Source: Candidatus Eiseniibacteriota bacterium
Lineage (GTDB): Bacteria > Eisenbacteria > RBG-16-71-46
Length of the DNA stretch: 64,000 bases
Direction of reading: 5' to 3'
Assembly (NCBI GenBank): GCA_963717505.1
Contig: OY970342.1
Span: forward strand, 2,432,001-2,496,000
Numbering within the stretch: the first letter of the stretch is position 1; each line of letters starts with the position of its first letter. The notes below the pieces were generated by a model, which saw only the letters and a program-made list of their open reading frames with translations, was not told where the DNA came from and did not search any database. Below, piece after piece: positions 23,567-29,232 of this stretch. Both the position numbers and the translations under genes were made by a program.

Positions 23567-26026
23567 CTACTTTACTAGGATCATTCGGGTCGAGCGAGCT
23601 TCCTGGGTGACACCGTTCCTGACCACCGCGCGGGCGAAGTAGACCCCGCTCGGCAGCGTGCGGCCCTGGGCGCGCAGTGCGAAGCGATGCGTGCCGGGTT
23701 CGTACCGGCCTTCGGCCAGACGAGCGACCTCACGCCCCGAGACGTCGTACGCGCGCATCGAAACCTCGGCAGCTTCCGGCAGATCGAGCGCCAGCTCGGC
23801 GCCGCGAGTGTAGAAGCGCAGCGCGCGCGGCGAGACGCGGTCGTCGACGTCGAGTGTGACCGGTTGGATCTGAACGGTGAACGTGGCCTCGTCGTAGATC
23901 GGCACCATCACCAGGCCCGCTCCCGGGTCAGCGCCGACGCACTCGACGAAGGCGCCCTCGTGCGAGCCGAACGCCATGACGCCAAAATCCTGGCCAGCGC
24001 CGGGATTGAAGCCCGCGCCGGTGGCGACCACCAGCCGCCCGTCGAGGTCCGCCGCACCCGAGACCGTGAGGTGACTGAACTGGCTGCCGTCGCTGGACAC
24101 CGCAATCCCGAGCTCGCCCTCGGGAAGCTGGAAGTAGTTGCCGTTGATCGCGAGTCCGGTGCCGGCGTCGGGGATCACGATGCCCGAGTTGTAGACGTCG
24201 GCGGTCACGGTGCCGCGTCCGCGTAGGGCGCCCAGAAGCATGAGCCCCTGGGGCACGGTGAGCGAACCGCCTTCGAGCGCCGTCTCGCCCGAGGTCTGGA
24301 GGTAGTCGGTCGCCGGATCCGCGATGAACGCGCCGCCGGTGGTGATCCTGTTCGTCCCCTCGATCGTGATCTGTGCGCCCTTGGCCCGGGTCGTCTTGCC
24401 GCTCTGGGTGATGAACACGGCGCCGGAACCAATCGTGACGTCTTCGAGAGTCGTTTCGCCGTGATTCCGGAACGAACCCGAGCCCGACCCGCTCAGAACG
24501 CCGCCGACGATCTTCGCCGTCGAGTTCCAGCCGAGCAGGACGTTGCCCTCGGCCACCAGCGTGCCGCCGGTGTTACGCACCGCCGAGCCCTGCTCGAAGC
24601 GCGCCTGGCCGGTCGCGGTGGTGGTCAGGGTGCCTTCATTCACGACGTCGACCGTCTTGACCCACAACGTGCCGCGCTTGACGTTCAGCACGTTCTCGTT
24701 CCGGATGCTTCGATCCTGGATCCATAGGACGCCGCCGGTGCAGTCGACGTCGAGCGTGCCCTGGTTGATCAGGTTGGCGGTGATCGTGCCACAGCCGCGA
24801 ATCGTGTGGCCGGCAGCGTTGGTCAACGGGTAGCCCCGCGGCGTGTTCAGCGTGCCGTTTTCGAGCTGCACCACGCCGCTCCCGGAAAACGCGACGCCGT
24901 TGGTCATGGTTCCGTCGGTGTTGATCTGGCCGGTCACCCGCACCAGGCCGTCGTTGATCAGCGAGCTGCCGGCCGCCATCAAGTCAATCTGGCCGTCGAC
25001 CAGGACCACGCCGTCGGCGGCGATGCGCAGGTTCTGCGGGGTCGCCTGCCACAGACGAACCACGCCGGTGCCGCTGGTCCGATGGACGGTGCCGTTGACC
25101 AATGCGTTCGAGCGGATGCGCAGGTCGCCGCCGTCCGACACCAACTCTCCGGTGGACAGGTTGTCGATCGTGCCCGAGTTGCCGAACGGCAAGTTGATCT
25201 CGAACGCGCCGCCGCCGGCGCCGGCGACGATCTCCCCCGAGTTCTTGACCAGCGGGAAGTCGATTTCCACCAGGCTGCTGTTCGTGACCCGCGTGGTCCC
25301 GGAGTTGAGCAGGTATTGCTTCACGCGCAACGTCTGGCCGGCGTCGGCGTGCAACAGTCCGTAGTTGTCGACCGGAACGATGATGGTTCCGGCGCCGCGG
25401 ACCGTGTGCTGATTGCCGTTGGTCAGCCAGAGCGTGGTCTGGGGCACTCCCAGTCCGCATGCCACGCGGCCGCCTTCGAGCAGCAGCGTGCCACTGCCGA
25501 TCAACACCGTGCTCGAAGTCAGGTGGAGCGCGTTCGTCAGCACCGGACCAATGACAATCGTACCGTCATTGGTGATGGTGCCCGCGGTGGTGATCGAGTC
25601 ACCCGGAGCGCAGCTCAGGATGCCGCCCCCCTGGTTGTGGAACTTCGAGCCGTCGAGCACGCCTCGGTATCGGACGACGGTTCCCGAGTTGTAGACATTG
25701 GTGATCGACGTGGTCGAGTAGCCGGCCAGATCGAGGGTAGCCCCACCAGCCAGCGTGAGCGCGTCGATCGACGGACTGGCATCGAGCGTCACCTGGTAGG
25801 CGCTGCCGAGCGTCGGCAGCACTGCGGTTTCGCCCACCGCATCGGGGACGTTGGCCGGATCCCAATTCCCCGGATCGGACCACACGCCACCCGCGGCGTT
25901 GGTCCAGGTGATCGTCACCGCGGCCGCGGTCGATGCTGCGATGGAACCGACACCCAGTGCCGCCAGGACGACGAGCGTGCACAGCCTCACGGGTGAGAGT
26001 GCCCTGGACGAGGACCGATCGGACAT
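23567..26026 (-). CDS. large secreted Gly/Thr/Asn-rich beta-helix-like protein with FlgD-Ig/T9SS-like C-terminal domain
   Basis: Signal peptide, WTNAAGGVWSDPGNW, repeated 'HTIRGxGTI', 'YFQLPEGELGI', C-terminal 'YDVSGREVARL..LPSGVYFAR..RMILVK'. Confidence 0.75.
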   Translation of the reverse strand: MSDRSSSRALSPVRLCTLVVLAALGVGSIAASTAAAVTITWTNAAGGVWSDPGNWDPANVPDAVGETAVLPTLGSAYQVTLDASPSIDALTLAGGATLDLAGYSTTSITNVYNSGTVVRYRGVLDGSKFHNQGGGILSCAPGDSITTAGTITNDGTIVIGPVLTNALHLTSSTVLIGSGTLLLEGGRVACGLGVPQTTLWLTNGNQHTVRGAGTIIVPVDNYGLLHADAGQTLRVKQYLLNSGTTRVTNSSLVEIDFPLVKNSGEIVAGAGGGAFEINLPFGNSGTIDNLSTGELVSDGGDLRIRSNALVNGTVHRTSGTGVVRLWQATPQNLRIAADGVVLVDGQIDLMAAGSSLINDGLVRVTGQINTDGTMTNGVAFSGSGVVQLENGTLNTPRGYPLTNAAGHTIRGCGTITANLINQGTLDVDCTGGVLWIQDRSIRNENVLNVKRGTLWVKTVDVVNEGTLTTTATGQARFEQGSAVRNTGGTLVAEGNVLLGWNSTAKIVGGVLSGSGSGSFRNHGETTLEDVTIGSGAVFITQSGKTTRAKGAQITIEGTNRITTGGAFIADPATDYLQTSGETALEGGSLTVPQGLMLLGALRGRGTVTADVYNSGIVIPDAGTGLAINGNYFQLPEGELGIAVSSDGSQFSHLTVSGAADLDGRLVVATGAGFNPGAGQDFGVMAFGSHEGAFVECVGADPGAGLVMVPIYDEATFTVQIQPVTLDVDDRVSPRALRFYTRGAELALDLPEAAEVSMRAYDVSGREVARLAEGRYEPGTHRFALRAQGRTLPSGVYFARAVVRNGVTQEARSTRMILVK

Positions 26027-26267: not shown

Positions 26268-27764
26268 TCAGCGTCCGTAGCGGACGGTCAGCTCCGCGAG
26301 GCGCTCGGCGAGCGCATCGGTCAACGCATCGGCCGCAAACCGCCAACCCCAGTTGCCCTCCATGCGTCCCGGCAGGTTCATGCGGGCCTCGCTGCCGAGA
26401 TCGAGCACGTCCTGGACCGGCACCACCGAGAGGTCGGCGACCGAGGCGTGCGCCAGTCGAATCAGATCCCAAGTGATGTCACTGCCGTCGCGGCCGAGGT
26501 AGTGCCGCACGTGGTCGCGTTCGTCGGCGGTCGAGGACTGCTGGTACCAGCCGCGCGTCGTGTCGTTGTCGTGCGTGCCGGTGTAGACGACGCAGTTGCG
26601 CTCGTAGTTGTGCGGCAGGAACGGATTGCTCGGATCACCGGAGAACGCGAACTGCAGCACCTTCATGCCGGGGAAGCCGAGCGACTCGCGCAGCGCGGGG
26701 ACTTCCGGCGTCAGCTCGCCGAGATCCTCGGCGATGACCGGGAGCGGGCCCAGGGATCGGCCCATGGCGTCGAATACGGCGCGTCCGGGGCCAGGAACCC
26801 ACCGCCCGCGGATCGCGGTTTCCTCGTGCGCCGGGATCTCCCAGTAGGCCGCGAAGCCGCGGAAGTGGTCGATCCGCACCAGGTCCACGGTCGCGAGCAG
26901 CGACCGCATGCGCTCGATCCACCAACTGTAGCCCGAAGCCGCGAGCGCATCCCATCGATACAGCGGGTTGCCCCAGCGCTGGCCGGTGGGGCTGAAGTAG
27001 TCGGGCGGCACGCCGGCAATGACCGTCGGCCGGCCCTGGGCATCGAGCTCGAACAGCTCCGGGTGCGCCCAGACGTCGGCGCTGTCGTAGGCGACGAAGA
27101 TCGGCAGGTCGCCGAGGATCCGGATTCCCGACTCGTGGCAACGCGCACGGAGCGCCGACCATTGTCGCGCGAACAGGAATTGCTGGAAGTGATGGAACGC
27201 GATCGCGGTCGCCAGCTCTCGGCGCGCGCTGGCCATGGCGTCGGGCCGGCGCAGGGCCAGGGCCGGGTCCCATTCGCTCCACGACCTGGACTCGCGCTCG
27301 TGGATCGCCATGAACAGCGCAAAGTCCTCGAGCCACCCGGCCTGCGCCGCAACGAAGCCGTCGAACTCGCTGCCGAGCCGGCCGGGCCCAGCGCTGAAGC
27401 GCTCGAACGCCGCGCGCAGCACGCGACGCTGGAACGAGATCATCGCCCCGAAGTCGACGCGCTCCCGGGGAAACGCCGGCGCTCCGGCGAGGTCGGCCTC
27501 GCCCAGTAAGCCGTCCGCGACCAGCGCTTCGGGGCTGATCAGGTTCGGGTTGCCGGCGAAGGAGGAGAAAGGCTGGTAAGGGGAGTCGCCGAACCCTGTG
27601 GGCCCGAGCGGCAGCACCTGCCAGACCTTCTGCCGGGCGCGCGCGAGAAAACCGACGAACCGGTGCGCTTCGGGTCCGAGATTCCCGACACCGAACCGTC
27701 CGGGGAGCGAGGTCGGATGGAGGAGGACGCCGGCGGCGCGTGGGTGCGGCGAAGCGTCGATCAT
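26268..27764 (-). CDS. malQ: 4-alpha-glucanotransferase (amylomaltase, GH77)
   Basis: GVLLHPTSLP, WQVLPLGP, GVPPDYFS, RIDHFRGF, IAEDLG, YTGTHDN; start could be 27782 or 27764. Confidence 0.95.
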   Translation of the reverse strand: MIDASPHPRAAGVLLHPTSLPGRFGVGNLGPEAHRFVGFLARARQKVWQVLPLGPTGFGDSPYQPFSSFAGNPNLISPEALVADGLLGEADLAGAPAFPRERVDFGAMISFQRRVLRAAFERFSAGPGRLGSEFDGFVAAQAGWLEDFALFMAIHERESRSWSEWDPALALRRPDAMASARRELATAIAFHHFQQFLFARQWSALRARCHESGIRILGDLPIFVAYDSADVWAHPELFELDAQGRPTVIAGVPPDYFSPTGQRWGNPLYRWDALAASGYSWWIERMRSLLATVDLVRIDHFRGFAAYWEIPAHEETAIRGRWVPGPGRAVFDAMGRSLGPLPVIAEDLGELTPEVPALRESLGFPGMKVLQFAFSGDPSNPFLPHNYERNCVVYTGTHDNDTTRGWYQQSSTADERDHVRHYLGRDGSDITWDLIRLAHASVADLSVVPVQDVLDLGSEARMNLPGRMEGNWGWRFAADALTDALAERLAELTVRYGR

Positions 27765-27841
27765 CGGGCGGAAGCTAGACATACGCGCAGCCTTCGGCAA
27801 ACATGCCCGGCGCGTTCACCGCGGGGGACAGGAGGATTCCG

Positions 27842-28441
27842 ATGTCGGGCGATCGAGCGCTCATCGAGTTCGAAGCGGAGCGGGAGCGAGTCGCTCACGT
27901 GACGCGCCTGGGAATCGGCATGCCGATGGCCGGGTGTCTCTACTGGATTGCGGTCGGCTTCCTGCTCGGCGCGTTCAAGCCGGGGGCGGCGCTGGTCTAC
28001 TCGTTCGCGCTCACCGGCGTGGTGTTCCCGGTCGGATTCCTGCTCACCAAACTGGTGGGTGGCGACCTGTTCGCAAAGAGCGCGTCGCTGACCTCGCTCG
28101 GCATCATCCTGGCTGCGATCCAGCTGTTCTATTGGCCGGTGCTCATGGTCGTGTTCAGCCAGGCGCACGAATGGACGCCGTTCGTGCTCGCGGTCCTGTT
28201 CGGCTCGCACTTCCTGCCCTACCTGTGGCTCTACGCCAGCCGGGGGTACGCGGTCCTGGCGATCTCGACCTGCGTCGTGCCGACCATCGCCGTGATCGTT
28301 CGGCGCGATCCGCTCTACCACCACGTGCCGTGGATCGCCGCCGCCTGCTACGCGGTCGCGGTGTTCATCCTGTGGGGAGAGGTGCAGCGCCGGGCGGCAG
28401 CGCAGGCGCCTCAGGCGGCGAGCGTCTCGGCTTCGACGTAG
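27842..28441 (+). CDS. hypothetical multi-pass membrane protein (DUF7010-like)
   Basis: AGGAGG RBS; about 6 TM segments; 'GSHFLPYLWLYAS' motif. Confidence 0.7.
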   Translation: MSGDRALIEFEAERERVAHVTRLGIGMPMAGCLYWIAVGFLLGAFKPGAALVYSFALTGVVFPVGFLLTKLVGGDLFAKSASLTSLGIILAAIQLFYWPVLMVVFSQAHEWTPFVLAVLFGSHFLPYLWLYASRGYAVLAISTCVVPTIAVIVRRDPLYHHVPWIAAACYAVAVFILWGEVQRRAAAQAPQAASVSAST

Positions 28442-29232
28442 CTACGCAGACGCTCCAGCTGATCGCGCGGAACGTAGTCGAACGCGACACCAATGCCGCC
28501 GGATCGCTGCCATCCCGGGTGCTGAACCCGGACCACGCGCGCGGACGCCTCGACGCGGTCGCCGTTCTCCAGCTCGATGTCGAGGTCGAGCCGGGTGCCG
28601 ACCGGGATCTCGCCGTTGGTTTCCAACAGGGCGCCGGTGACGCTGATGTCGACGATCCGCATCGCGGTGCTGCGCGCATCGTGGTGGATGACGCCCAGCG
28701 ACCGACGACGACGGCGGCGGGCCGGCGGGGGATCGGGGCCCGGGTGGGGCGGACGCGAACTGGGCGAGACGGCGCGGATCGCTTCGATCTGTTGCCGGAT
28801 CCGCGTGCACGCCGGCGCCAGGGCCGCGCGCAGAGCGTCGTCATTGCGGGCCCCGTGCTCGACGACGATCAGGTCGAGTCCCGAGGGCAGGAGGAACGGG
28901 ATCGTTCCCGGTTGGACCAGGAACGTGCGGCCGCGACCCAATCGGCCCATGAAGTACGCCGATTGCATCACCACCGTGTCGCGAAACGCGAACGCGTGCG
29001 CCGAGGGGCGTGGGACGTCGCCCGGAGCCAGCACGATCGCGGCGAAGTCGAAACGCCGGCCGCACTCCTCGAGTGCTTCGATCGGTCCGAGCGAGAGCAG
29101 CGTGCGCTCGGGGTTCCAGATCGTGCACTCCACGTCGGATTCGAGGTTGGCCTGGATCGCGCGGGCGATCCCATAACCCGCGGGCGACGAAGAGATGGCG
29201 AACAGACGCGAGCGCGGCAGCACGATCTTCAT
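28411..29232 (-). CDS. CAP12/Pycsar-type TIR-like domain fused to PilZ domain
   Basis: LFAISSS..DVECTIW..FDFAAIVLAPGD..RDTVVMQSAYFMGRLGRGRTF..LPSGL; then RRRRR and DISVTG PilZ motifs, VVRV, GIGVAF. Confidence 0.8.
   Translation of the reverse strand: MKIVLPRSRLFAISSSPAGYGIARAIQANLESDVECTIWNPERTLLSLGPIEALEECGRRFDFAAIVLAPGDVPRPSAHAFAFRDTVVMQSAYFMGRLGRGRTFLVQPGTIPFLLPSGLDLIVVEHGARNDDALRAALAPACTRIRQQIEAIRAVSPSSRPPHPGPDPPPARRRRRRSLGVIHHDARSTAMRIVDISVTGALLETNGEIPVGTRLDLDIELENGDRVEASARVVRVQHPGWQRSGGIGVAFDYVPRDQLERLRSYVEAETLAA

Follow-up and report, generated by a model that had tools for sequence, protein, structure and literature searches.

A TIR-PilZ protein in a Candidatus Eiseniibacteriota genome: a predicted cyclic di-GMP receptor with a substituted TIR active site

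Bacterial effectors in which a nucleotide sensor is joined to a TIR domain are already described, including a TIR-STING activated by cyclic di-GMP (c-di-GMP), and the known systems of this kind take their signal from a dedicated cyclase. New here, within the literature searched, is a PilZ domain as the sensor. The protein in question, referred to below as TIR-PilZ, is encoded in a window of 64,000 nucleotides (the whole stretch of DNA analyzed) from a Candidatus Eiseniibacteriota bacterium (assembly GCA_963717505.1, contig OY970342.1, positions 2,432,001 to 2,496,000 of the forward strand), and consists of an N-terminal TIR domain of the CAP12-PCTIR_TIR family (PF10137) and a C-terminal PilZ domain (PF07238). 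It is probably a two-domain c-di-GMP receptor that descends from TIR NADases gated by c-di-GMP, and in which cleavage of nicotinamide adenine dinucleotide (NAD) has been lost and the TIR domain has become a non-enzymatic output or assembly module.

The nearest relatives on the effector side are TIR-STING (Cap12; SfSTING 7un8, and also 9lmq and 9lmr) and PycTIR (8jsj). TIR-STING has the same PF10137 TIR (Z 14.6-14.7 over 130-142 residues against the modelled TIR-PilZ domain) and the same plan, a single polypeptide that begins with the TIR and ends with a sensor of c-di-GMP, the ligand predicted for TIR-PilZ; ligand-driven filaments bring D110 of a neighboring subunit into place, completing the TIR active site (PMC9402430, Morehouse et al., 2022). 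Its sensor is STING, however, and its partner a cGAS/DncV-like nucleotidyltransferase (CD-NTase), whereas TIR-PilZ has a PilZ barrel, four replaced pocket residues and housekeeping neighbors. PycTIR likewise combines sensor and TIR in one chain and is matched across the whole TIR domain, but its TIR is C-terminal (residues 152-301), following a separate N-terminal part, so that the order is reversed in TIR-PilZ, whose sensor is a PilZ with no cyclase partner nearby; PycTIR senses cUMP or cCMP and is partnered with a cyclase (in part general background, in part PMC10118264). Since neither a cyclase partner nor the full set of catalytic residues is found, TIR-PilZ is not a member of the cyclic-oligonucleotide-based anti-phage signaling systems (CBASS) or of Pycsar.

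On the sensor side, the closest described proteins are the PilZ receptors YcgR, MotI/DgrA, MrkH, PP4397 and Alg44, which share the fold (Z 11.6-13.7, root-mean-square deviation 2.1-2.8 Å over 94-99 residues). Receptors of the YcgR, MrkH and PP4397 type hold c-di-GMP between their PilZ barrel and an Arg-rich linker. Like those of the YcgR/MotI/MrkH type, TIR-PilZ has an RxxxR motif leading into the barrel, a DxSxxG motif within it and an N-terminal domain attached to the predicted ligand-binding linker. It differs in having a TIR where YcgR-type receptors have a PilZN/YcgR-N domain, and in lacking the flagellar, pilus, polysaccharide or DNA-binding context of two-domain PilZ receptors. No description of TIR-PilZ proteins, or of the patatin-PilZ proteins discussed below, was found in the literature searched, although a mention in some table or supplement of PilZ domain architectures is possible.

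Evidence for the two domains

An earlier note, made from the DNA alone, had read the gene as an open frame encoding a TIR domain, a proline linker and a PilZ domain with both of its motifs intact. All of this stands: the frame is open on the minus strand for 273 codons (Table 1), the motifs are present as RRRRRR and DISVTG, and both domains pass their Pfam cut-offs, PF10137 on residues 13-109 (E 9.4e-10, 39 bits against a cut-off of 24.7) and PF07238 on residues 177-267 (E 3e-12, 47.2 bits against 22.5). PADLOC profiles match residues 7-153, the CBASS TIR effector PDLC00731 at 2e-22 and PycTIR at 2.5e-18. The Cap12 equivalogs of NCBIfam align with the TIR part alone and score far under their cut-offs, as is expected because the architecture differs. 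Among solved structures, the best sequence match of the single protein is PycTIR 8jsj (E 6.8e-7); with a profile of the TIR-PilZ family, the E value falls to 6.5e-29 for 8jsj and to about 1e-28 for both 9lmq and 7un8.

The AlphaFold2 model, for which 50 sequences of the family were used, reaches a mean predicted local distance difference test score (pLDDT) of 85, with two well-modelled domains separated by a disordered linker (pLDDT below 50 for residues 159-175). The N-terminus, on whose TIR fold the original proposal depended, does model as a TIR (pLDDT mostly 88-96, with dips to 70-79): residues 6-156 overlay the TIR of the TIR-STING chain 7un8_A with Z 14.7 and a root-mean-square deviation of 2.8 Å over 130 residues, and on 9lmr_B and 9lmq_A with Z 14.7 and 14.6, respectively. 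Residues 170-273 superpose on MotI 5vx6_B (Z 13.7), MrkH 5ejl (Z 13.4, 2.1 Å over 99 residues), 4xrn_C (Z 12.2), Alg44 4rt1_B (Z 12.1) and YcgR 5y6f (Z 11.6), and Foldseek agrees on the PilZ fold (5vx6_B at E 2.8e-4). TIR-PilZ is thus a PF10137 member by sequence and fold, and a PF07238 member by profile, motifs and fold; the observation of the two domains together is far beyond chance.

The altered active site and the history of the family

The NAD+ pocket of SfSTING comprises F6, S10, W33, F37, L47, R78, N80, the catalytic E84 and D110 from the partner subunit (PMC9402430). When these are mapped through the pairwise alignment to 7un8 and the TIR-PilZ family alignment, the window protein retains five of the nine (F11, S16, W39, L54, R84) and has substitutions at the other four: T44 for F37, T86 for N80, Q90 for E84 and G118 for D110. 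The assignment of Gln90 to the position of the NADase glutamate, already made in the earlier note, is borne out by three pairwise HMMER alignments (8jsj, 9lmq, 7un8), in each of which RDTVVMQ of the window protein lies on RDNVxFE. That note had also listed LPSGL against a consensus LPSDL; by alignment, this is G118 at the D110 position, and it appears to be a second functional loss. The closest relative, P0002, shares Q90 and G118 and has Ser at position 86.

These losses stand against a family background in which the site is often complete. A search of a set of 5.8 billion proteins gave 65 matches, 38 of them with both domains in precomputed Pfam assignments, and further matches from this set align full-length with a degenerate TIR; about 50 clusters at 90% identity have the TIR-PilZ architecture. 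An exhaustive search of 1.84 billion representatives (50% identity clusters) found about 16 full-length TIR-PilZ representatives, and for P0002 the automatic annotation of one source already names both domains. The gene is therefore no lone decaying copy, a circumstance that would have told against the earlier proposal. Two patterns run against viral contigs found no relative, and PHROGs gave no match either.

Among 50 aligned members, PF07238 is matched in all 50 and PF10137 in 40 (E <= 0.001), and the catalytic position is Glu in 27, Gln in 11, Arg in 6, Pro in 4 and Gly in 2. This supplies the count of Glu and Gln among homologues that had been proposed as a check, while the neighborhoods that were to go with it are scanned for a few loci. 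All nine pocket positions are kept in 24-27 of the 27 Glu-keeping members (position 90 is E in 27/27, position 118 is D in 24/27), and these relatives look, from their sequences, like c-di-GMP-controlled NAD-destroying enzymes.

In a quick maximum-likelihood tree (63 rows, unrooted), one clade of 25 rows with support 100 is Glu-less throughout, and the window protein and P0002 are placed apart from it. They fall among Glu-keepers, and their branch measures 1.59 changes per column. A scripted count gave three state changes with P0073 unscored; inspection by eye gives P0073 a Glu, which brings the minimum down to two independent losses. The direction is taken as loss rather than gain because the outgroup, other PF10137 representatives, keeps Glu in 125 of 126 (123 by pattern and 2 by eye; the remaining one has Ala). 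Compared with this near-universal retention, 27 of 50 in TIR-PilZ proteins suggests that loss of the glutamate is specific to this architecture. The expectation that such TIRs are normally fused to STING or to cyclic-nucleotide-binding sensors was not upheld: 29 of the 38 nearest TIR-only representatives carry no other Pfam domain, and the other 9 carry HTH, HEAT, AAA_28, methyltransferase, SnoaL, TIR_2, DUF6879, RimK or aminotransferase domains.

One possibility is that the TIR is still an enzyme, a glycosidase or NAD-processing activity working through Gln90 or another residue, and that the protein, as the Glu-keepers would be, is a c-di-GMP-triggered growth-arrest or anti-phage effector. 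The five remaining pocket residues would be consistent with this, as would the strong conservation of the TIR relative to near relatives and its intact modelled fold. However, the residue that is Gln here is Glu in the 27 Glu-type TIR-PilZ proteins and in 125 of the 126 other representatives, the equivalents of N80, F37 and D110 are also gone, and the burst of change is concentrated in the TIR; we regard continued catalysis as unlikely.

That burst can be seen by comparing the two domains. Against ten Glu-keepers, the window protein has a mean identity of 39% in the TIR and 51% in the PilZ, versus 58% in each domain among those ten themselves, so the extra divergence is concentrated in the TIR. 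More recent change has a different character. P0002, which is full-length, is 84% identical overall and 87% in each domain. Contigs from metagenome run X2 are about 96% identical to the gene, with 20 differing codons listed, 15 synonymous and 5 non-synonymous; the ratio of non-synonymous to synonymous change per site (pN/pS) is about 0.12 (binomial p ~1e-5, with 27% of sites synonymous), an estimate from a single run at a contig depth of about 2.9 and from the listed differences, and three of the five non-synonymous changes are close to a contig end (32-43 bases away). The TIR part has 8 synonymous differences to 1 non-synonymous (pN/pS ~0.04), and Q90 is encoded in these contigs as CAG, leaving the Gln unchanged. 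The frame is intact and appears to be under purifying selection, and a TIR that was first relaxed and then constrained again would fit release from catalytic constraint followed by a new one.

Could the gene instead be a decaying remnant of a horizontally acquired defense gene, with no present function? Its absence from the genomes of 60 relatives, its lost catalytic residues and its long branch might be taken that way. The intact frame, the 84% identity to a full-length homologue, a base composition like that of the neighboring genes and the 15 synonymous to 5 non-synonymous differences all point in the other direction, and a decaying pseudogene is very unlikely, even on low-depth contigs from one run; of the explanations considered here, a functionless relic has the least to recommend it and is highly improbable.

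A PilZ switch and its possible output

In the mechanism that we propose, c-di-GMP made by the cell's GGDEF enzymes would bind where the Arg linker meets the PilZ barrel, in the manner of the YcgR/MrkH/PP4397 type, ordering the flexible linker (the RxxxR segment) and shifting the orientation or self-association of the TIR. Among relatives that keep the Glu, this switch would bring the TIRs together as an active NADase with its site completed in trans, as c-di-GMP does for TIR-STING. In the window protein, with Gly118 in place of the trans Asp and Gln90 in place of the Glu, the output would have to be non-enzymatic: the TIR may act as a docking, scaffold or assembly surface relaying the signal to a hypothetical partner. 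The earlier note had offered two readings. A repurposed, c-di-GMP-controlled and probably non-catalytic TIR is the one favored here, with four of nine pocket positions lost and the TIR apparently under purifying selection; a functional effector that responds to housekeeping c-di-GMP suits the Glu-keeping relatives better than the window's own copy.

Besides the shallow basis of the selection estimate, several points weigh against this interpretation. Gln at the catalytic position is by itself no proof of inactivity, as other chemistry is possible. The functional statements (ligand binding, loss of NADase activity, oligomerization) are all inferred, and the partner protein is still hypothetical. 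TIR-PilZ is absent from the genomes of 60 relatives (36 from its own family, 13 from its order and 11 from its class; no conclusion depends solely on the one unpublished genome included, G038), among which there are one TIR-only match and one weak match; the gene is therefore accessory, rather than core, in its lineage. Finally, no solved PilZ chain was found by sequence, either with the single PilZ part or with a 9-sequence PilZ profile, so that the assignment to the PilZ family is based on the match to the Pfam profile, on both motifs and on the fold of the model.

This last point bears on the ligand. The PilZ might read another nucleotide, such as cyclic GMP-AMP (cGAMP) or a different cyclic dinucleotide, or bind no ligand, in which case the signal would differ from housekeeping c-di-GMP. 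Apart from the missing sequence match to a solved PilZ, the subtype has an extra motif of its own (Q237, P239, W241, G245 and G246, invariant in 50 sequences) and is also found on CapV-like phospholipases, and known relatives of those enzymes are cGAMP-responsive (PMC6042076). Yet the two canonical c-di-GMP motifs are complete and do not vary across the same 50 sequences (R172, R175, S197 and G200 invariant, R173 nearly so), the modelled fold aligns with PilZ structures that have c-di-GMP bound (Z 11.6-13.7), and in the host genome GGDEF enzymes are present while a CD-NTase was not found. A different ligand, or none, therefore seems unlikely.

Another possibility is that the protein is a buffer or decoy, with no downstream partner of its own, that soaks up the messenger or caps active TIR assemblies. 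An apparently dead TIR beside an intact PilZ, in a gene of patchy occurrence, is what such a role would look like. But no other PF10137 TIR was found in the genome for it to cap, purifying selection on the TIR (8 synonymous differences to 1 non-synonymous) is unexpected if the PilZ alone mattered, and a stand-alone PilZ of the same subtype, such as P0079 or P0087, would serve more cheaply. We consider this role improbable, and continue to favor a receptor whose TIR passes the signal on.

Full-length CapV-like patatins also carry this PilZ subtype at their C-terminus: in P0051, P0053 and P0055, which match the PADLOC CBASS phospholipase effector at 1e-104 to 1e-106, it is 45-53% identical to that of the window protein; P0057, a further CapV-like patatin (PADLOC match ~1e-104), carries it as well. 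CapV, the CBASS phospholipase, is no relative of TIR-PilZ, and the likeness consists in the PilZ shared with these close CapV homologues; the effector chemistry is different, and the patatins retain their GxSxG and DGG catalytic motifs (by eye), whereas the window TIR has lost catalytic residues. From their sequences, the four patatins look like candidate c-di-GMP-gated phospholipases. A search of the 5.8-billion-protein set with the PilZ alone found no new architecture. With TIR-PilZ and the patatins together, then, this PilZ is joined to two different CBASS-type effector modules. It is possible, and we suggest it tentatively, that the two constitute an undescribed class of single-gene effectors in which a CBASS-type killing module, NADase or phospholipase, answers straight to housekeeping c-di-GMP with no infection-triggered cyclase of its own; the window gene and an Acidobacteriota clade, described below, would then be disarmed and domesticated descendants that retained the c-di-GMP switch and the TIR scaffold for a different signaling task.

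Genomic setting and other members of the family

The neighbors of TIR-PilZ in the window (Table 1) are housekeeping genes, and the locus is not a defense island. Other genes nearby encode a sensor kinase, an aminotransferase, an S9 peptidase, a GTP-dependent phosphoenolpyruvate carboxykinase (PEPCK), an M24 peptidase and an acyl-CoA synthetase. Across the 17 open reading frames (ORFs) scanned, from about 14.5 to 37 kb, there is no GGDEF, CD-NTase or nucleotide cyclase domain, in agreement with the earlier remark that no cyclase gene is nearby, and no defense or mobile-element gene. G+C by codon position in the TIR-PilZ gene (0.72/0.52/0.85) is like that of its neighbors, and no flanking repeats were found around the locus. 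In four relatives (L160-L163), MalQ, DUF7010, the upstream gene and TIR-PilZ are all missing from the PEPCK-adjacent regions, so no insertion boundary could be drawn. Simple scans gave no promoter-like site; the only terminator-like site, at 28110-28126 inside the DUF7010 gene, is no more than shuffled sequences give. A look-up of RNA data sets listed none that contains the locus.

Table 1. Coordinates of the TIR-PilZ gene, its domains and motifs, and the adjacent genes, numbered from the first base of the window.
Feature	Position	Strand	Basis or remark
TIR-PilZ gene	28411..29232	-	Open frame, 273 codons and stop
TIR-like domain, residues 6-156	28765..29217	-	PF10137 match and modelled fold
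Gln90 codon (CAA), at the catalytic Glu position (SfSTING E84)	28963..28965	-	Pairwise alignments
Gly118 codon, at the SfSTING D110 position (completes the partner's active site)	28879..28881	-	Alignment to 7un8
Pro-rich interdomain linker, residues 157-171	28720..28764	-	Sequence and low pLDDT
PilZ domain, residues 172-273	28414..28719	-	PF07238 match and modelled fold
RRRRRR Arg run, residues 172-177, containing the PilZ RxxxR	28702..28719	-	Sequence
DISVTG, residues 195-200, the PilZ [D/N]xSxxG motif	28633..28650	-	Sequence
819-aa protein, signal-peptide-like N-terminus, Gly/Thr-rich repeats	23567..26026	-	No Pfam match at E <= 1e-5
MalQ gene	26268..27800		Neighbor scan
DUF7010 membrane protein gene	27803..28441	+	Converges on TIR-PilZ, with a 31-base overlap at the 3' ends
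Upstream gene, 209 aa from ATG, N-terminal membrane helix	29229..29858	-	Stop overlaps TIR-PilZ start (ATGA)

The gene immediately upstream is translationally coupled to TIR-PilZ through the shared ATGA, and its product is membrane-anchored. The protein has no Pfam, NCBIfam, PADLOC or PHROGs family, and belongs to a very small one of its own (11 homologues found). Its model is confident (pLDDT 90.7, predicted template modelling score 0.81), but Foldseek found nothing in the PDB at E <= 0.001, and the highest Z among the 48,161 chains compared by VIA-align was 5.4, no clear match to a solved fold. The longest contig is given as 40,939 bases both for its 73% identical homologue and for P0002, and the shared figure hints that the pair of genes is conserved in the source of P0002. 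The upstream gene is not beside any other TIR-PilZ locus examined. A complex prediction of TIR-PilZ with residues 40-209 of the upstream protein scored 0.00 and 0.00, which is neutral on a partnership.

The host genome is a single contig rated 86.7% complete, so genome-wide absences are to be read as "not found". In this sense the SMODS CD-NTase (PF18144) and a second PF10137 match are not found in the genome; a pyrimidine cyclase domain was not found in the 17 ORFs around the gene, the range over which that family was sought. Genes for c-di-GMP turnover comprise 6 GGDEF loci (4 with an intact GG[D/E]EF), 1 EAL locus and 6 loci of the HD-GYP type. The only EAL domain (G000:C1:1264821-1265529) reads in two overlapping frames. 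TIR-PilZ was at one point taken to be the sole PilZ of the genome, as the only PF07238 match at E <= 0.001; this was withdrawn, as a small PilZ gene, carried after RNase R in relatives, is present at G000:C1:3204177-3204687, where it too reads in two frames. The two-frame genes may be either real frameshifts or assembly indel errors.

Located members of the Glu-less clade of 25 rows are in Acidobacteriota genomes (L001, L002, L003, L007, L038). A conserved gene order, futalosine-pathway menaquinone genes (mqnE/D/C-like), DUF167, a Glu-less and partly deleted TIR-PilZ, DUF6159 and a PD40 protein, recurs in genomes and metagenome contigs (L002, L007, L038, L087, L094-L097, L103, L105), and this setting is present in 7 of 81 genomes around G062, G062 included. 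The clade would be a second, independent domestication.

At four other TIR-PilZ loci with scanned flanks, two with Glu (L081, L083) and two with Pro (L085, L091), there is no cyclase or CD-NTase; these are too few for generalizing. L081, a metagenome contig with a Glu-keeping copy, has a second PilZ ORF upstream (L081:1-423, plus strand) and, downstream on the other strand from TIR-PilZ, a 307-aa RelA/SpoT-domain protein (L081:3824-4747, minus strand), an arrangement that may link two nucleotide messengers.

What would these proteins mean for the bacteria that carry them? If the Glu-keeping relatives are c-di-GMP-gated NADases, a housekeeping messenger would directly control destruction of NAD+, raising the question of how self-killing is avoided in cells that use c-di-GMP for ordinary signaling; if TIR-PilZ and the patatin-PilZ proteins are indeed one class, biofilm and motility signaling would be tied to NAD+ depletion, dormancy or phage defense. 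The family is small and easily tested, with two domains in about 270 residues. At least two losses of the glutamate, with the PilZ motifs untouched, would make it a naturally occurring example of the conversion of an immune enzyme into a signaling scaffold in bacteria, and a disarmed bacterial TIR of this kind would parallel the non-catalytic TIR adaptors of animals.

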